From positions 310,001-374,000 of the forward strand of contig JAPEUD010000004.1 of the NCBI GenBank assembly GCA_026026165.1: a stretch of 64,000 nt of DNA. Reading direction: 5' to 3'. The number at the start of each line of letters is the position of its first letter. The stretch's first letter is position 1. Made by a program: the position numbers and the translations under genes. Origin of the DNA: Sarea resinae (Eukaryota). Below are positions 4,798 to 20,481 of the stretch, one piece after another. The notes below the pieces were generated by a model. It searched no databases. It was not told the DNA's origin and worked only from the letters and a program-made list of their open reading frames with translations.

Positions 4798-7700
4798 ATG
4801 GCATATGACATGAACACGGCCTACCAGGCTCCCCAGCGACGACCATTGCAGTCCCCCACTTCTCCAACCGCGGCATATGGTGGCTACAACGCCGGTCAGG
4901 CAACCGGTGGTTATGGCTACGACGGCTATGCCGAAGGTGGATACTCCAATCAACCATATGTAGACCCATATGCAGGAACCAACGGGCAATACGCCCAACA
5001 ACCACGGCAGCCCGCACAAGCGCCCGCACAAGCTCATCGCCCTCCAGCTCGGCCAAACCAGAATGGCTACGACAGACCACCGCCATCTCGAAATTACGGG
5101 GACCCTCGAGCCCGGAATGGATACCCCGAACATGCTCCCAGCAATGGAGGCCCGCAGACCCGGAGAAGAGACAATTCAAATGGAAGAGCAGTCATCCCAG
5201 GCCGCGGAACCCCGGGCCCAGATCCGCGCACGAAGGCCCGGCCGCCTCCCTCAAATCAAGGTCAGCTCTGCAAGGTGCAAACCTAGTCTCTAATCGCTGA
5301 CATTTGCTTTCCCCATCGCAGACTGGGATAGAGCACGTCGGCCAGATTTCCCCACCCAGAAGACCTGGAACGGTCAATATCCCCCACCGCGCAAACCCGA
5401 ATCGAAGAGCTTGGACGACTCGATGGCCGGTATGAGCTTAACGAATAATGCCTATAACAGAGAGCCGTACCCGCGCCCTCAAACCGCGGATAACAGACGA
5501 CCAAATAAGCCTTATAGGAATTACAACAACGTTGCCGAAGGCGGATATGCCGATGGTTATGGTAATGGCCCGGGTAATGTCGAGTATCCGTCTCGGCCAC
5601 CAGAGAGAGCACAACCAGGTGCCCCTAAGTATGCCCAGGACCCGCGGGACAGATCATACAGCCAGACTGGCCGTCAAAGGCCGCCGCAGCCGCAGCCGCA
5701 GCCGCAGCCAGGATATGCTCCTCAACAGCCTCAGTATGATGGACGGTTCAGGCAAGCGCATACTACCCCCGCATCTCCCACCAAACCGCCCCCCGACTTT
5801 GTTCCCCCGAGAAGTATGACTATGCCCAATGGATATGGTGATCACGCCGCCAACGGTGAAGCTCGGCCGAAGTACCCAGGCCAAGCGAAATGGCAAGAGC
5901 CCGGCCCAGGACCAAGTTATCATGGCCCAGAAGAGACAGAGTTCATTCCCGCAAGACCTGCAACAGCTAATGGCTCAAGACCAGCTGCACCACAACTGCA
6001 CACAGATGAAGCACCGCACCACGATCCTAATGACTATGCTCCGGAACCTGTCCACGCGCCAGCTGGACAAGAGAGACCACTTAGTCTGGGCGTATTCCTG
6101 GACTCATATTACAATCTTCCCCATGAACCGTATCCTTTCACGGGCCATTATCAGGAATTACCTATAGACGAGGTAGACGAGGCGGACGAAGATATGCCGA
6201 ACTTTGATGCTGTCTCGGAGCAGGCGTCGAATCACCGGCGTGGGATGACTATTGACCAGCATCTGAAACCGCAGAATGAAGCCGTGCCAGACGTACCTCC
6301 TCTACCGGATCTCTCGAGTTATCAGACCCACAAAAGTCGGTCCCAGCCAAATCTGCGGGAGCAGGGACAAGGTGGAATGCCCAATGGCCGTTCTCCATAC
6401 GGATTATCTATTGATGTGCCCGACGTTCCTCCAATGCCAGTCCAGCCCAATGGCAACTTTGGCCCGCAAAGCTATCAAAATGTTCAGTCACCCTACGGAG
6501 AGGTCCCTGGGCGAAGCTCTATGGATCGACAAAACCAAGGATACTACCCAGCCAATGGACAACAACAACCTACTCCTATAGACCCACGTCGGTACGACAG
6601 CAACGCACAGCGATCCAACTCCGACAAGAGTAGCAGATTGGCAAGAACTCCAATAAGTCCCGGTACACAGAACGGCTTTGGGGTCAGCCCTTCCACGACC
6701 CGTCCATTGAATCCTGATGCTCTCCCCGAACATCCAACCCCTATTAGACCAGGCCTGATGACGGGATCGGTAGTCAATCAGCCGGAAAAGGCGCCTCCTG
6801 TTAGGCAATACGGTACGAATAATCCTCCACAGCAAAACGGTCAAGCGCCAATGCCCGATCGTCACGCTTCTGTGGCCGTTACCCCACAAGAACTCGAACA
6901 GCTCAAGCAGGCCATGAGGAAAAGCCCTTCCGACTTGAAGGTGCAGATGAAATTGGTGAAAAAATGGGAAGAGGCGGCAACGGTTCTTGCCGATGAGGGT
7001 GGCAGGGCGGATCCCAAGACGCGGAATAAGAATCGGGAGAGGTACATCCTTGACTCACATAAACTCTTGAAGAAGCTTGTCCATTCTGGCTATCCGGATG
7101 CCATGTTTTATCTGGCGGACTGTCTAGGGCGAGGCGGGTTGGGACTCGAGAATGATCCCAAGGAAGCGTTCACTCTCTATCAATCCGCAGCGAAGGCAGG
7201 ACATGCTCAGTCAGCATATCGGACGGCAGTATGCTGCGAGCTAGGCCAGGAGGAAGGAGGTGGCACGCGCAAGGACCCCGTCAAAGCTGTGCAGTGGTAC
7301 AAAAGAGCTGCAGCCTTGGGCGATACTCCTGCCATGTACAAGATGGGCATGATCCTCCTCAAGGGCCTGCTCGGGCAGCCTAGGGATTCTCAAGAAGCCG
7401 TGACTTGGCTTAAAAGAGCGGCGGAACGGGCTGATGAGGAAAATCCACATGCTCTTCATGAGCTAGCTCTTCTATACGAAAATGCAGGGCCTAACGACGG
7501 TATCATCCGCGACGATCAGTACTCGCTTCAGCTTTTCACCCAAGCTGCAAACCTTGGCTACAAATTTTCTCAGTTCCGCCTCGGCTGTGCCTTCGAGTAC
7601 GGCCACATGGGATGTCCCATCGACCCGCGACAGAGTATCATGTGGTACAGCCGCGCGGCCGTCAACGAAGAGCATCAGAGCGAGCTCGCACTCAGTGGCT

Positions 7701-8076
7701 GGTACCTCACCGGCTCGGAAGGCGTCTTGGGCCAGAGTGACACCGAGGCTTATCTCTGGGCTCGCAAAGCGGCGATGGCTGGTTTGGCCAAGGCGGAGTA
7801 TGCCATGGGATATTTCACCGAGGTTGGTATTGGAGCGCCGGCGAACCTCGAGGACGCCAAGAGATGGTACTGGAGAGCTGCTTGTAAGCATTTGATTTCT
7901 GTTCGGAGACCCTGAAGGCAAGGACACTAATGTGCTCTGTAGCGAAACACTTTCCTAAAGCCAAAGAACGGCTCGAGGATCTCCAACGCAATGGGTCCAA
8001 GGTGCAGAAGTCGCGCGAACGCCTCTCGCGATCCAACGTCAACAAGCAGCATGAGGGCGACTGCGTCGTCATGTGA
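4798..8076 (+). CDS. CHS4: Chitin synthase activator, Chs4/Skt5-like SEL1-repeat protein with C-terminal CaaX
   Basis: Exons 4798-5260, 5322-7882, 7942-8076 join in frame. Long P/Q/Y-rich N-terminus, several SEL1 repeats (AVQWYKRAAALG, AKRWYWRAA), C-terminus EGDCVVM*. Confidence 0.9.
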
Positions 8077-10251: not shown

Positions 10252-11261
10252 GACGGGAAAAGGGCGATTGAATGGATGGATGGATGGATGGATGGATGGA
10301 TGGATGGGATGGCGATGATGCTGCCGAAGAGCCTTTCGGATGATGCAGAGAAGAGCGAGAAAGAGTCTCGACAAGCAGGTTGGAGAGGGAAAGAGGAGAG
10401 TAGATTTAGACGTTCGGGAGATGGCGAGCCATGTGCGAGACAGATGATGGATTTCTCGATTGTTTCTAGTGCGAGCAGCGTGTCATCTTCTGGTGATCTT
10501 CGGCCTCATTTACTGGTAGCAGTACGGACGGACATGGGTGATGAAGGACTGAATGAATGAATGAATGAATGAATCCCCAATAATGGGGCAGATGTCATGG
10601 AGTGAGTAGGAGGGAGGAGTGATGCGGTTACACCACCACCACCACCACCACCATCATGACGGGAATGGCCCATCTTGCGCCAGCTCGAGAGGCGCCCGTG
10701 TCGAGCAGATATGAGGCAGTTTCTCGCCGTCCCCGCCGTCGTCGCCGTTTCCCGTTCGGTGCGCACGAGGGGGAGTGGCCCCCTGCAAAACATGCTCATC
10801 GCTAACGCCGAAGGGAATGGTCGGACCCAGTACTTCCTTACTCTACTATGAGTACGTCAGTACTCGGTGCAGATGCCGTCGTCGGCCATCGGTACCTCGG
10901 ACAGAGCTCACCTTCGCCATACATCACCGCCCGCAGAGTGAGAGGAAGGGCAGGTATCCAATGTACTACCCTCTATCTATCAGAAGAGCAAGTGACGGTG
11001 TCCATGGATCCAATGATGGTCGTGGCAGGTCGAAAACCTTCTCATCTTGCCCCGCCGTGACACTTCTCGTCCTGTTCCCACCGATGCATCCAGATCCTCG
11101 ACCACTACTCGGAGTGATCAGCCATCATTCGTGCTCGCTCTCGTGCTCGTGTTGCTGATCGATGGAGTGTCTCTCCGAGTGACCGCTGGCCGTCTCTCTC
11201 TCTCTCTCTCTTCCTTTCTGACCTTCTCCCTCATCGTGAACATTACTCTCCCCACCTCATC

Positions 11262-13677
11262 ATGGAGAAGATCTCCAACATGGATGCCGTGGACCTGCGG
11301 AGAAGAGACGACATGTCGATGCCTGCCGGCGTGCCCGATCTGTGGCATATGCAGCGCATGTGGTGGGCCGTCATGGGGGCCGTCATCGCATTTGCAACTG
11401 CCGTCCATCTGCTCGACCGCGTCCTGTACCGTCAAAGGTCAGCTTCGGTCATGTTGGCACTCGAAATACTCAAAGCTGACGAGATTGCCCAACAGGATAT
11501 ACGCAGCGAACCGCAAGCTGCCGACCCCCGCCAAACCAAAGGTCTTTCTCTTCTGCTGGGCGGCAACGGTCACGGCCATCGCCCGTGAAATCTCTTATGC
11601 GTCCCTGTCGCCTCTGACCTTGAGAAAGATCACCATCCGGTCACCGCCTCTCGGCCGGGCCATCGTCATCGCTGCTCACTTCGTGGTCTTGGTAGTCTTC
11701 TGCTTCTGGAAATTTAGCCCAGACGATGCGGAGCAGTATGAAGCCCTGGGTTGGCGTGCCGGCTTCCTCACCATGGCTCAATTGCCTCTGCTTTTCCTCC
11801 TCGCGGGGAAAAACAATCTCATTGGCTACCTGACCGGATCGAGCTATGAGAAACTCAATTGGCTGCATCGGTGGGCGGCCCGATGTCTTCTGATCACAGC
11901 GACCATCCACATGGGATACGAATTCAGCCTTGACATCTCCGAAGATGGATCCATCTCTTCGCAGGTCAAGACCGATCCAACGACGAAGAAAGGTCTGGCT
12001 GCTTGGGCTATTCTTGCCTGGATCGTCTTCAGCTCCGTGGCTCCTATTCGGGGCTGGAACTACGAGTTTTTTGTGCTACAGCATCTCGTCTCCTATGTAG
12101 CTTTCATTGTCATGGTTCTTGTGCATACTCCCGCATCAGACCATAGCTGGGTTTGGATTTCAATCGGCCTCTACGCTTTTGACCGCCTTTCACGGGTTGC
12201 CGTCACTTTATACAACAATCTCTCAATCTTTCATCCGCAGCAACGCAAAAACGGCCAGGCCTCGAGCTTTTGGGCGTGTAAAGCCGAATTTACTGCTCTC
12301 TCGGGCTCTGCCACTCGGATCACAATCGCTGATCCTCCTATCACGTGGAAAGCAGGTCAACACATGTTCCTCTCCTGCAATTCCATTGTGCCGTTACAAA
12401 GCCATCCCTTTACCATCGCATCTCTGCCCCAGGACGGGAAAATGGAGTTTATTGTCCGATCGCATAGAGGTGGCACGAAGCGGATCTTCAAGCATGCCGA
12501 AAAGAGTCGAGGCCTTCCAACCACTACTGTCGACATACGATCGACCCAAGCTGAAAACGTAGCAGTGGAGGGGCCCTATGGTTACATCCGACCGCTCCGT
12601 CAATTCGACAGCGTGGTTTTCTTCGCCGGCAGCACTGGTGCCACCTTTATTGTTCCCTTGATGAGAGACATCATCTCTGCATGGAAAGAGTCCCACGATA
12701 AGACGAGCAATAACAACAAATCGAAGAAGCGCCTTGGCTTCTTCGCTACACCCGTAGGGGCAGTGACCCGCCACATCCGCTTCATCTGGGTGATCAAATC
12801 AAAAGATCGCTTAGACTGGTTCTCACACCACCTCAACTCCGCCGTTAAAGACGTCCAGGCCCTCCAGTCCGAGGCCGGCATGGCCGTAGATCTCGAAATT
12901 AGCATCTACATCACCTGCGACGACACCCTCACATCGGAGAACAAGAGATCCGAAAAAGCTGTCATTTCCACCAACAATCCGCCCGCTTCTGCGCACGGCC
13001 GCATCGAGCAATTCCCCAGCCAACGCTCGTCCGCAGACGCAGAATTTGCTTCCGACGACGAAAAAGCTGACCTCAAAGCCGGCCAAAAATACCAAGCTGA
13101 GCATAAAGAAACGGTCACCTCGCGCGAACTCGCCGACGACGCCGACTCTCTCGCGTCGTACTCGGTACGGGGGCAATCCAGAGGAGAGGCGTCAGGCACA
13201 TGCGGTCCAAACGGAACGTGCTGCTGCACGAACACCATCGACGACGAAGACGCCATCACCTCTACCTCGGCCACGGGGGAGAATAAGATATGCACATGCA
13301 ACTGCTCCGCCCCTCGTCCAACTTCCTCCTTTCTTGAATCTCGACCCCCACTCCGCGCCAACAGCATCAGCGGCACCAGCTCTGACGAGAAGGATCTGCA
13401 ATCCCCGCAACAGCCCTTGGCGTCTGCATCCCCCTCCCCCATCAGCCAGACACTCCACCCCACAATCACCCTCCTGTCAGGCCGCCCGTCTCCCAAAAAC
13501 ATCATTCGAAAGACATTGGAGCAAGCGCTCGGCGAGTCCGGCGTCGTGGCCTGCGGCCCGGCTGGTCTAATAGACGATGTTCGCAACAGCGTGGCGGCGT
13601 TGAGCGACGAGCGCGCCGTGCATAAGGGCTCCGGCGCCCAGGGCGTGTGGTTCAGGGGCGAGGAGTTTGCGTTCTAG
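11262..13677 (+). CDS. Ferric/cupric reductase (FRE family; transmembrane heme, FAD and NADPH domains), 2 exons
   Basis: Intron about 11438-11494. Heme His motifs LHRWAAR...IHM and FVLQHL...LVHT, FAD motif HPFTIAS, EGPYG, AGSTGATF, CGPAGL, terminal EEFAF. Confidence 0.95.
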
Positions 13678-14143: not shown

Positions 14144-15172
14144 TTAAAACCCATGCTTCTTCGTCTCCTCCTCACTCCAGTCCCACAACTTGGCGGCCAA
14201 CTTCTCATCCTGCGCATACGCGGAACCAGCGTTCAAGCTCCCAACGGGCTTGTAATACGCGCCACTTTTCACCTCGGCCTTGGGAGCGGTGGCGGCCCAG
14301 AGCTGATTCTTGGCGCCCTGGGGCACGCCGCCGAAGACCCACGGGCCGAGCACGCCGAGCCCGTAACGCATGATGAAGTTGGACTTCTCCGAGGGCCCGT
14401 ACAGGTCCGTGTAGATGACGCCCGGGTGCACGGCCACGGCCGTGATGGACGGGTAGCGCTGGGCGAGCTGGCGCGTGAACAGGATGTTGCTGAGTTTGCT
14501 CTGGCCGTAGCGGGACCAGGGCCCGGTTTTCTTCTCGCTCTCGGCCGGGTCGAGGATGAGGCCGCCCGTGGGCGCGAGACGGTGGCCTTCGGAGCTGAGG
14601 TTCACGATGCGCACGTCGGCATCTGGGCCCTCGGCGGTTTTAAGTAGGGTGGGCAGCAGCAGTTTGGTGAAGAGGAAGTGTCCGACGTGGTTGGTGCCGA
14701 ATTGGATCTCGTAGCCTTCCTCGGTCGTGCCAAAGGGCATGGCCATGACGCCTGCGTTGTTGATAAGGAGGTCGAGGCGGGAGGAGGCTTGCGTGAAGGT
14801 TTCGGCGGCATTTTTGATCGACGCGAACGAGGTGAGGTCGAGTGAGAGGTGCGTTATGGGGGCGCTGGGGAGGGCTTTTTTGATGTCGGTGATGGCGGCT
14901 TCGGCTTTGGAGGCTGTGCGCGCCGCGAGGTAGATGTGGCTGGGGTTATGCTTGGCGAGTTGGAGACAGGTTTCCTTGCCTAGACCTGTGTTGCCTGTTC
15001 GTTTGATTAATAGTATGAGCCATTGCCATTGCTGGATGTACGAGGTGGGTGGTGATGAGACGGTGAAAGAAGATGATAGGAGTTCTGTTTACGCACCTCC
15101 TGTCACAATAATGACCTTACCCGAAAGATCGGGGATGTCGGATTCGGGATTAAAGCTTTTCCCCCAAAACAT
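14144..15172 (-). CDS. Short-chain dehydrogenase/reductase (retinol dehydrogenase/WWOX-like), 2 exons
   Basis: IPDLSGKVIIVTG|GNTGLG, LINNAGVMA, QFGTNHVGHF, catalytic YGQSK, VHPGVIYT. Confidence 0.95.
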
Positions 15173-16446
15173 CTTGAATTGCTGGTCTTGTATACCGTTT
15201 TTCTTGGATAGATTAAGAGTAGGCTGATGAAGAGCGATGGTTGTGCAGGTGTGCTGTGTGAGACGTGGGGTATGATGTCGATGATGTTGATGTAGATACC
15301 TACCTACGTTAGTGAGGAGAAGCTCCTTGCCTTTTCGCGTAGGCAGCTGAAGGTATGCGCCAACATCAGATGCTTGAACCTTAAGTGAAACAAGCAAAGA
15401 TTGCCAATTGCCGCCGTCTTTGATCAGAAACGAATCTCAGCTGTTAGCAATGAATCTTTTCGATCACCATTGGCAGTCTGATTGCTTCTGTACACCCAAC
15501 GGTACCTGAAGCTCGAGTAGCAATGGAAGATATCAATTGAAGAGTTGGCTTCCGTCCACATGCACCTACATATGTAGCACCTACCACGGAGTAACCTTCC
15601 CTCCGAGACTGATTTGGGGACAGGAGATACTTCCCGTAGGTACTAACTACGGAGCTGACCTCAAGGTACCGACCTGGCCTCTGCAACCATGATGGATGAT
15701 TTCGGTCACTACTGACATCGATTCGTGAGTTCGTCATCTTGTTGATTTCAAGCTTCAGGATTCCCATATCATATGGGCCCTGTTTGCTTCGATCGGGAAG
15801 ACTCCATGGAGATGGCTGTGTTATTGCTCTCAGGGTTCTATGCGGACTTGGCGAGAATCAGGGCTGCTCCCCTAGATGGATGGATCAAGAAGGTCACATA
15901 TGACTTTGGCCACGGAGCCTAGATAGACCCAAGCAAATATGCGCAAATTCAAGTAGGGAACAGTGACATCCCCGTTCGATGCTTCTCAGCTCTTGAGAAC
16001 GACATAACAATCTCAATTGCTGCGAGGCCATCAGCTGGCGTGGATAGTGATGCGATCACCAGTAGAAGAAATTGTGACTGTTGTGGTCGGAAAAAGCCGA
16101 GCACCATCGCCTCGCTTGAGAGGGCACAACCAGATTTGCGGCTCTGGAAGAGAAGTGCACCTGAAGTCGACAGTGCCAGTGCTACCACGGACCAGGTCGA
16201 AGCTCAGCGCAGCGCCCGAGACGAGACTCCGCTGCCGCATTGGTTGAGCGACATCTACACCACCTACCTCTCTACCACATCACGCTTCATCCGATCGGTG
16301 CGCACGCCCATCCCCCATCTAGATCTCCTTCAAACATCGTGTAACACGGTTTGACGCTGGCACTGACGCTGACCCTCATCTCTCTCTCTCCAGCGAAACA
16401 CTCCACCCGCCGTTGAAATCCGAGATCTCGCCGGCATACAGCAATC

Positions 16447-17301
16447 ATGGATCACGCAAAGCTTGCGAAGATGCAGCAGTCCGTGAGGATTGGTGAGTCT
16501 TGTCCCTGTGCCTTGGCGAATAAATCTACGATCAATTGCTCTCTCATACTTCATCGGAAGATATCGAATGCTGACAAATGTCTGTGTGATCAGGGTAAAT
16601 CCCCCATTTCCGTACCTCCCTCGTCTTACACTCCAGATTATGACCCTCTGATTCGAGAGCAAGCCCTCATATCGCTTATCGAACCGTCGCGCCGATGACG
16701 AAAGTCCATACGAGAAATATGCTAATAGCTGGTGAATCTGTGCAGCGGCAAGGGTACCCCGAGGAGAAAGATCAAGAAGGTCCATAAGAGCGCTGGCACC
16801 GACGACAAGAAGCTCCAGACGTCGCTGAAGAAGCTCAACGTTCAGCCCATCCAGGCGATCGAGGAAGTCAACATGTTCAAGGAGGATGGCAACGTGATCC
16901 ACTTCGCGGCACCAAAGGGTCAGTCTCGCACTAGTTTTACTTGACACATGGGACACTATTTGTGATGGATTTCGACGGTCGATCGGAGACTACGGAGTTG
17001 GGGCAGTGATGTTCGTATCTTGATTCTAGTCAAACTGACAGAAGACTTGGCAGTCCACGCTTCCGTCCCCGCAAACACATTCGCCATCTACGGCAACGGC
17101 GAGGACAAGGAACTCACCGAACTCGTCCCTGGCATCCTCAACCAACTCGGCCCCGACTCCCTAGCATCTCTACGCAAGCTCGCCGAGAGCTACCAATCGA
17201 TGCAAAAGAAGGACGGCGAGGATGGCGATAAGAAGGATGAGGACGATGACGACATTCCCGATCTGGTGGCAGGGGAGAACTTCGAGAGCAAAGTCGAGTA
17301 A
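16447..17301 (+). CDS. EGD1: Nascent polypeptide-associated complex beta subunit (BTF3/Egd1); exons 16447-16492, 16594 (1 nt), 16746-16918, 17054-17301
   Basis: [27 protein letters not shown]...[12 protein letters not shown]...IEEVNMFK...[14 protein letters not shown]...[15 protein letters not shown]...DDDIPDLV. Confidence 0.97.
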
Positions 17302-18693: not shown

Positions 18694-20481
18694 ATGGACC
18701 AAAATTCTAGCCCCGGGGTAGCCTCGATGGCTGCGGTGAGGAAGCAAAATGATGGCAATATCTTCGATTCTGTTACTACGCATGCGGACATAAATCAGAC
18801 GCATGAACGGAAGAATGCGAATTCCAATTCTTTGGCCGTTGGCCAGGAAAACAAATCAGGAAACAGCAACCACGACATGGACCCTGTGCCAAGACCACAA
18901 AATGGACCTGAGTCTCTTTCAAAGCCGAACAGTCCTCCCACTGGTGATCGGCAGGAGCAGCATCGGGATATAAAAGCGTTGGAGACCAAATCCAATGGAA
19001 AAGGCGACCAATTGACAGCTGAAAGGCAACCGAGGACCAAAAAGGCTACAATCATTCGCAAGACTTACCGGCACCCCGACAATGGTGATAGTGAGCGACC
19101 GTGCAATTGTCCTCCTGGAAAGCACGAGTCTGAGTCAAGGAGTAAGATTGAGAATGCGTTGCAGTCGTACAAGAAAGGAGATGAAAATGCCATCTACACG
19201 ATGGCTGAAATAGCTCAAAAACGAGGCGTTCCTTCGGATTTGCGGTGCCTGGTATGGCCAATCTTGTTGAATACGCATCCTCTTCTTTCATCTGTCAAGG
19301 AGACATCGGCGAAAGGTTGTGCCCGGAAAGAGCATTCAGCCAGAGATATACCTTTGAAGCGGATCAAAGCCGAAATTGCCCGCTATCATCGTCGAAAAAA
19401 TAATCTTCCGAATACAAGTCACGGATCTCCTTTGACCTCTGCTTCCCCTGGCGCAGAGAGTACTGCTTCTGCTTCGACAGTCCTGACGAATGACTCTTCA
19501 CCACTCCCTCCTCCTCCAGATGCAGAAGCGCTCCATAAGGCAACCCTGGACGCGGCGGTAGAGGACGCCGTTGTAGACTTCCTCGAGAAGAATGAGCAAG
19601 TGGAATATTCTCCGGGGATGATATATGTCTGCCTGACACTCTCCGACTGGCTCATCCAGTCTCCCACCGGATCCGCAACGTCAGCATTACCGGAGTTGGT
19701 TCACGACCACAGCCAAACGCAATGGGCGACCCTTAGCAAAGCATTCGACCAAACAATGTCGATGATGCTCTGGGCGCCAAGCTCAAGCAGCTGTTCCGAA
19801 ACCCACGCCACACAATATGAAAACATCCTCACGCGACGCATTTCGCACTTCCTGAGCACGTTTCGCCGTCTTCTTCCCGAGTTAGCTGCCTATTTTGACG
19901 AGGAAGAAGTCAGCGGCTTCGGCGAGGAGTGGGTTCATAGCTGGATTCAGTGGTGGCTTTCACGGGAGCTGGGAAGAGATGAGAAGGGCCGACTTTGGGA
20001 TTTCTATCTGGGCTATCGTCTGCTGACGCGAAAAGCAAAACCTTCGTCCTCTTCGTCGTCGTCTTCCGCCTCATCTTCTTCATCGGATTCTGGATATGGA
20101 GACGATGAGGCTGTGCCTTTCGTCCAACAGCAACAAGTGGATGTATCCTTACCTTCGTCCCTCGCACCCCCATCCGCGACTACCACATTTCCCGATCCTG
20201 CAAACCCAAGTGCAACCACAACCACCACCGCCGAAGATGACGCTATAGAACCCTACTCTCTAGCGGACTGGCACATGTACATCTGCCTGGCCCTCCTCCG
20301 CGCCGCCAAGGATGCCCTTGAAGAGCTCGAGCTCTCCGAAATCCGCGCGCTCTTGGGCCGTCTAGGGCTGCTGAAGGTCGACATGGACGCGATCATCCGC
20401 GAAGCGGATCGCATGCGGAAGGAAGCTAGGGAGCTGGGGGCTAAGGAGGAAGAGGAAGCGTGTAGACGGAGAGTGAGTTGA
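18694..20481 (+). CDS. OCA5: TBC/Rab-GAP-fold protein, Oca5-like (single-exon ORF, 595 aa)
   Basis: IAQKRGVPSDLRCLVWPILLNTHP and FRRLLPELAAYFDEE...WIQWWLSREL...RLWDFY match TBC-fold motifs. The Oca5 subfamily call rests on remembered similarity only. Confidence 0.7.
   Translation: MDQNSSPGVASMAAVRKQNDGNIFDSVTTHADINQTHERKNANSNSLAVGQENKSGNSNHDMDPVPRPQNGPESLSKPNSPPTGDRQEQHRDIKALETKSNGKGDQLTAERQPRTKKATIIRKTYRHPDNGDSERPCNCPPGKHESESRSKIENALQSYKKGDENAIYTMAEIAQKRGVPSDLRCLVWPILLNTHPLLSSVKETSAKGCARKEHSARDIPLKRIKAEIARYHRRKNNLPNTSHGSPLTSASPGAESTASASTVLTNDSSPLPPPPDAEALHKATLDAAVEDAVVDFLEKNEQVEYSPGMIYVCLTLSDWLIQSPTGSATSALPELVHDHSQTQWATLSKAFDQTMSMMLWAPSSSSCSETHATQYENILTRRISHFLSTFRRLLPELAAYFDEEEVSGFGEEWVHSWIQWWLSRELGRDEKGRLWDFYLGYRLLTRKAKPSSSSSSSSASSSSSDSGYGDDEAVPFVQQQQVDVSLPSSLAPPSATTTFPDPANPSATTTTTAEDDAIEPYSLADWHMYICLALLRAAKDALEELELSEIRALLGRLGLLKVDMDAIIREADRMRKEARELGAKEEEEACRRRVS

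Follow-up and report, generated by a model that had tools for sequence, protein, structure and literature searches.

Exons consisting of a single nucleotide are rare and overlooked, as the preliminary description of the locus treated here had assumed, but they have already been described, including in fungi (PMC12940212; PMC12230235, accessible part). In plants, the accessible parts of two reports describe the one-nucleotide exons of APC11 and VPS55 as deeply conserved across land plants (PMC4674806; PMC8831610), and the exon of Arabidopsis APC11 was, according to the accessible part of the report, proven by base substitution (PMC4674806). A one-nucleotide exon of a Fusarium P450 was called the first for a fungal gene in a study from 2026 that covered one genus (PMC12940212), and 13 annotated one-nucleotide exons were reported in nuclear genes of the fungus Coprinopsis cinerea; the accessible text of this paper and five of its supplements make no mention of NAC/BTF3 (PMC12230235). 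Moreover, intron definition was reported for Pezizomycotina in the accessible part of a further study (PMC5587772). A literature search, with subscription journals and gene databases outside its scope, found no report of a one-nucleotide exon in NAC-beta.

The gene analyzed here encodes NAC-beta (EGD1/BTF3) of Sarea resinae and is located on the + strand of the window, i.e., the whole stretch of 64,000 nucleotides under analysis (assembly GCA_026026165.1, contig JAPEUD010000004.1, positions 310,001 to 374,000), to which all positions below refer. We consider it very probable that the G at position 16594 is a constitutive one-nucleotide exon and that the major spliceosome, acting by intron definition, removes the introns on both of its sides, I1 and I2. 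The first coding exon (16447..16492) starts with the ATG at 16447 and ends with ATT-G at 16492, its 46 coding nucleotides yielding 15 residues and the first G of the Gly16 codon. It is followed by I1 (16493..16593; 101 nt) with the donor GTGAGT at 16493, the branch motif GCTGAC at 16570-16575 and the acceptor CAG at 16591-16593, by the single G (16594..16594), which is the middle base of the Gly16 codon, and by I2 (16595..16745; 151 nt) with the donor GTAAAT at 16595, the branch motif GCTAAT at 16721-16726 and the acceptor CAG at 16743-16745. Both I1 and I2 are thereby complete GT-AG introns. The third coding exon (16746..16918) opens with C-GGC-AAG, the C completing the Gly16 codon, and then encodes the ribosome-binding motif GKGTPRRK and the first part of the NAC domain. 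The ordinary intron I3 (16919..17053; 135 nt; GTCAGT...CAG), which RNA joints span and which served as internal control, separates it from the last coding exon (17054..17301), which contains the stop codon, is covered by RNA to about 17407 and has no Pfam match. The splice signals and branch motifs of I1 and I2 and the exon ends around them were all found where the preliminary description had placed them.

The inclusion of the G yields a NAC-beta protein of 155 residues reading through RIGGKGTPRR, and leaving it out yields a product of 42 residues with a stop at 16828, which bears out the proposal that the G exon keeps the gene in frame. The identity of the protein is supported by a match to Pfam PF01849 (E 3e-15), by the N-terminal ribosome-binding motif RRK-x2-KK and by the lack of a UBA domain, and human BTF3 aligns gap-free with the same length at the Gly16 junction. 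The gene is present in a single copy in the 25.5-Mb genome. For yeast, the accessible part of one study reports that the RRK motif is required for ribosome binding (PMC4664479); as this motif follows a short way downstream of the G exon, the G preserves the frame of that end of the protein which does the work. The neighboring genes are ordinary and encode a Sel1-repeat protein (5294-7915), a ferric reductase (11017-13677), a short-chain dehydrogenase (14144-15088) and a Rab-GAP TBC protein (18694-20481).

Two RNA runs, X1 and X2, were found, both in the form of assembled contigs rather than raw reads. One contig (X1 record 1; 511 nt, depth 11.4, 3 other letters in 269, no gaps) covers positions 16393-16492 with one other letter and the third coding exon with 2 other letters in 169, and it joins 16492 to 16745. 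The joint skips 252 nt, where a single canonical intron would skip 253 nt, and this shows that the mRNA holds the extra G. A relative contributes a second contig that runs through Gly-Gly-Lys-Gly as well. Run X2 (share 0.04) contains relatives only and has no contig across the junction, and the junction evidence for this species therefore consists of one contig from one study. The included form alone was seen in the contigs: none of them covers I1 or I2, none shows a skip of 253 nt, and no singly spliced intermediate was found, all of this in contigs that lose rare forms, so that absence is not proved. The intermediates lacking only I1 or only I2 that the preliminary description had proposed to look for did not appear in this material.

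The same description had put forward junction reads as a check of the one-nucleotide exon. The predicted joint is indeed present in X1, but it does not discriminate, because a G flanks both ends and the joint alone fits equally well with a single intron of the type GT..CA, or TG..AG when shifted one base rightward. Such a non-canonical intron of 252 nt, removed in one step with the middle cassette being unused, would yield exactly the mRNA seen, the joint is reported with those ends, and the lack of any observed splicing intermediate agrees with it as well. As a junction read is not able to separate a one-nucleotide exon from one non-canonical intron, the separation rests on the conservation of the cassette, i.e., of the branch motif, acceptor AG, single G and donor GT in the middle of the region.

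For the analysis of conservation, metagenome contigs were scanned with exon 3, by which at least 363 of 572 candidate stretches were confirmed; the best 80 of these were retained, and they lean to close relatives. Seventy-six of the best 80 are genomic loci covering both exons, and left out were L078, which is incomplete, and L008, L009 and L026, which lack any intron and read RIGGK. In all 76 loci, taken from the best 80 of at least 363, and in the window, the region opens with G/GT, closes with AG/N and contains the branch-AG-G-GT cassette (77 of 77 with a wider branch limit), in line with the expectation that it is conserved across Pezizomycotina. These 77 regions comprise 61 distinct sequences falling into 36 clusters below 62% identity, and one representative per cluster was taken as a lineage. 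Global alignment gives a similarity of about 51% among the 36 lineages. In these representatives of the best 80 of at least 363 loci, I1 measures 54-475 nt and I2 measures 82-252 nt, with the lengths of both introns falling into all three phases, and an alignment of nine loci revealed no conserved intron body. At a branch limit of 30 nt, 35 of the 36 lineages (best 80 of at least 363 loci) carry the cassette, the branch motif of the remaining one (L074) being 33 nt away, and in 200 dinucleotide shuffles it occurred in 0.39 lineages on average and in 3 of 36 at maximum. The spacing between acceptor and donor is 1 in 35 of the 36 lineages, with spacings of 0, 2, 3 and 4 in 0, 1, 0 and 0 lineages, and of the third introns of these genes, 0 of 32 contain the cassette. 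The lineages are related, hence these numbers show retention and not independent origins.

The conserved set of branch motif, acceptor, G and donor in 77 of 77 regions (the window and loci from the best 80 of at least 363), embedded in otherwise unalignable letters, is left unexplained by a single non-canonical intron, for which every lineage would have to miss two perfect canonical sites by one base, and we regard this explanation as very improbable. Likewise, the insertion of the G by RNA editing was rejected, as it fails to explain the conserved cassette. It was also considered whether a G is missing from the assembly at one exon end, so that one intron would be enough. G runs flanking both ends and an RNA contig that is one G longer than a single intron would give are compatible with such an error, but the same phase mismatch is present in all 76 other loci (best 80 of at least 363) and the public protein nearest to the window, P0003, is also broken at the junction, making an assembly error practically negligible. 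The claim that two splicing reactions would be needed is supported.

Within the cassette, the middle base is a G in every locus examined among the best 80 of at least 363; since the Gly codon forces this G, there is no natural base change that would prove that the G in the mRNA derives from 16594. An A at position +3 of the donor is present in I2 of 35 of 36 lineages, compared to 20 of 36 for I1 and 23 of 32 for I3 (best 80 of at least 363 loci). The cassette motif by itself is not rare: a similar pattern gave 8 matches in the species' own 25.5-Mb genome and 18 in the reversed control, i.e., no enrichment, and it is its position between these two exons that is far beyond chance. The eight branch-AG-G-GTA matches in the own genome (L083-L090) include two that run into long open frames (L083, L086) and four with short frames after the AG (L084, L085, L087, L089). 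In the collection of prokaryote genomes, 0 of 186 candidate stretches were confirmed, and a single weak match in the viral collection (L082, 52% over 23 residues) was left out.

Some loci show peculiarities. L044 has AAG instead of YAG as acceptor of I1, with the near-identical L019 and L025 having CAG, which represents either a variant or a sequence error, and L075 has, besides the cassette, an additional intron within the first coding exon. In the window, a branch motif, a pyrimidine run and a CAG are found at 16363-16393, the CAG ending at 16393, 53 nt upstream of the ATG, and the RNA contig ends at 16393, coinciding with this CAG. This is likely the 3' end of an intron in the 5'-UTR with no clear donor in the window; a comparable motif was found at most 220 nt upstream in 18 of 35 lineages, counted without shuffle control and from the best 80 of at least 363 loci.

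With regard to the taxonomic breadth, the closest named proteins for the best 80 of at least 363 loci include those of Wilcoxina (99%), Letharia (97%), Pleopsidium (98%), Exophiala (99%), Microsporum (99%), Pyrenophora (98%) and Oidiodendron (98%), genera that we take to belong to Pezizomycetes, Lecanoromycetes, Eurotiomycetes, Dothideomycetes and Leotiomycetes. These similarities point to the presence of the cassette in at least five further classes of Pezizomycotina, the assignment being based on similarity of a conserved protein and not on a tree. Moreover, the public gene models of Fusarium, Trichoderma, Colletotrichum, Pyricularia, Verticillium, Aspergillus, Penicillium and Rasamsonia break exactly at this junction. 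The types of break, as read from the protein letters, would be those the cassette predicts, namely an extra residue from a GT located four bases into I1 (RIGTG, RIGIG, RIGDG), a read-through into the donor of I2 (RIG-YV), or residues from the end of I1 followed by GG. The broken protein models thereby suggest, indirectly, that the cassette may also be present in Sordariomycetes and Eurotiales.

That gene finders miss the G exon, as had been supposed, is reflected in the cluster representatives of Pezizomycotina labelled NCBI, of which 7 of 60 in one list and 8 of 95 in another have a correct junction by pattern match; cluster representatives over-count odd gene models, and these counts are not error rates. 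Some public models are correct at the protein level, and 21 of 25 non-NCBI cluster representatives read RxGGK with no extra residue. In one list, the pattern was matched by 14 of 30 representatives from Pezizomycotina compared to 41 of 45 from basidiomycetes, and the remaining four basidiomycetes had no insertion on inspection. The closest named protein to the window, P0003, is labelled Sarea resinae and matches exon 3 with 100%, yet it holds residues translated from the I2 of the window, which shows that its public model is wrong at the junction. In P0062 and P0067 (Lasallia), the protein letters ...LGQV... would be explained if I2, behind the single G, had the GC donor GCAAGT. P0217, labelled Carpinus (a tree), and P0389, labelled Photinus (a firefly), are fungal-type NAC-beta sequences and are probably due to fungal contamination of those records.

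Many of the public models imply one canonical intron reaching from a GT at 16497 to 16745 and adding one residue (RIG-D-GK). This donor restores the frame with GT-AG ends, its position holds a GT in 30 and a GC in 3 of the 36 lineages (best 80 of at least 363 loci), and models such as RIGTG, RIGIG, RIGDG and RIGEG, which fit it, are common. However, the RNA joint is located at 16492/16493 and not at 16496, ruling the shifted donor out as main form, and the shifted donor matches GTRNG in 0 of 36 lineages as opposed to 33 of 36 for the true donor (best 80 of at least 363 loci). As the intronless loci and the 21 of 25 non-NCBI proteins also read RxGGK without an extra residue, this explanation is hardly credible.

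Furthermore, the exon might be real but alternative, with regulated skipping or retention of I2 feeding nonsense-mediated decay (NMD) and thereby setting the level of NAC, as the preliminary description had suggested for skipping of the G. Skipping of the exon leads to a stop within exon 3 in 33 of 36 lineages, located in the window 90 nt before the last junction, and retention of I2 leads to a stop in 36 of 36, immediately in 22; these counts are from the best 80 of at least 363 loci and include one wrong row (L052). In addition, the one-nucleotide exon of VPS55 is, in the accessible part of the report, alternative in some plants (PMC8831610). Against regulated skipping, no contig with a 253-nt skip or with intron sequence was found among contigs that drop rare forms, any frameshift yields stops by default, the intron bodies are without a conserved element and the RNA folding is ordinary (z +1.28). 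Regulated inclusion therefore appears improbable, and the suggestion of regulated skipping found no support in the contigs.

The U1 snRNA pairs with donor positions -3 to +6, which at the donor of I2 include the AG of I1. Under the preferred reading of a constitutive one-nucleotide exon, the major spliceosome would remove I1 and I2 in turn, each of the short introns being defined across itself. Since only one base separates the I1 acceptor from the I2 donor, the AG of I1 would lie beneath the footprint of U1 on the latter (-3 to -1), and this overlap makes it unlikely that both reactions take place simultaneously. The same argument against simultaneous reactions was made for APC11, as found in the accessible part of that report (PMC4674806). 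By our own estimate, we lean slightly toward a removal of I1 first; a removal of I2 first seems rather doubtful, and a splicing in either order somewhat more doubtful still. The G would link exon 1 to exon 3 and complete Gly16, so that the ribosome-binding motif and the NAC domain would stay in frame.

In two JGI proteins, P0096 and P0078, exon 1 leads directly into one phase-2 intron and I3 is kept, so that only I1 is missing. With an unspliced gene call assumed, their protein letters would be compatible either with a genomic loss of I1 or with an RNA intermediate from which I1 was removed first, and either reading treats the G as an exon. Outside Ascomycota, the cluster of P0232, which is Wallemia-like (83% to Wallemia mellicola), fits a single phase-1 intron at the position of I1 and no I2, which might be a weak hint that the position of I1 is the older one. 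The arrangement may predate the split of Pezizomycetes from the other sampled classes, and we propose that the cassette has been kept because without the G, or with a splice signal lost, the frame is broken. A more far-reaching scenario combines a single origin in the ancestor of Pezizomycotina, through gain of an intron one base from an older one, with near-universal retention, a fixed order with I1 first, and maintenance also because mis-splicing feeds NMD and tunes the level of this ribosome-bound chaperone; taken as a whole, it is quite unlikely.

At this locus, an exon of the least possible size is found in a housekeeping gene that is abundant, present in a single copy and probably shared by model fungi, which makes it testable how the spliceosome handles sites one base apart with respect to the order of removal and the overlap of U1 with the acceptor. 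It also accounts for the many public NAC-beta proteins of filamentous ascomycetes that carry false insertions or are without their N-terminus exactly at the ribosome-binding motif, and such faulty models affect proteomics, phylogenomics and benchmarks of gene finders.

In comparison with known systems, the preliminary description had likened the arrangement to stwintrons and recursive splicing. The likeness to either is confined to the need for two splicing steps; with stwintrons, NAC-beta shares two U2 reactions that follow one another by intron definition at a single site of a Pezizomycotina gene, and splice positions one base apart (PMC5587772; PMC7138796; accessible parts). In a stwintron as described in these parts, one intron interrupts the signal of the other with no exon base in between, whereas in NAC-beta both introns are complete, each of them carrying all three signals before any splicing, and one base is kept. 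The external intron of a stwintron comes into being only once the internal one has been excised. A [D1,2] stwintron needs a T after the inner AG, where NAC-beta has a G, and a [A2,3] stwintron needs a G after the last AG, which is present in 4 of 76 regions (best 80 of at least 363 loci). Recursive splicing at a ratchet point needs abutting AG-GT without any exon base and a donor newly created by the first step, but among the 36 lineages 0 have a spacing of 0 and 35 have one of 1, and the mRNA retains the base. The defining features of both systems are thus absent.

The closest likeness is to CYP621A of Fusarium, which shares the AG-G-GT (AGGGT) cassette, the role of supplying, within a conserved motif, the middle base of a Gly codon, the mismatch of phase 1 to phase 2, the wrong gene models and a support consisting of conservation and RNA junction reads with no intermediates (PMC12940212). 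In contrast to NAC-beta, a single-copy housekeeping gene with the cassette in several classes of Pezizomycotina, this P450 is rarely expressed and comprises about 20-24 genes within one genus. According to the accessible parts of the reports, APC11 and VPS55 are similar in being nuclear, with the exon located between two GT-AG introns near the 5' end and absent from annotations (PMC4674806; PMC8831610). In APC11, the base is an A and the proof is by mutation, whereas in NAC-beta it is a G resting on conservation and mRNA (PMC4674806, accessible part). In VPS55, the donor after the exon gained an A at +3 and became stronger, and alternative forms exist (PMC8831610, accessible part). The donor of I2 in NAC-beta is similar in that 35 of 36 lineages from the best 80 of at least 363 loci have the A at +3; no alternative forms were seen for NAC-beta in the RNA contigs. 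The number for Coprinopsis is, in the accessible part of the paper, an annotation count in one basidiomycete (PMC12230235), and the NAC-beta models of basidiomycetes in the list of 45 described above are untroubled at the junction. On the tested features, the G exon of NAC-beta belongs with the one-nucleotide exons of APC11, VPS55 and Fusarium CYP621A; the kind of element is already known, and the member, its breadth, which is unusually large for fungi, and the gene class appear to be new.
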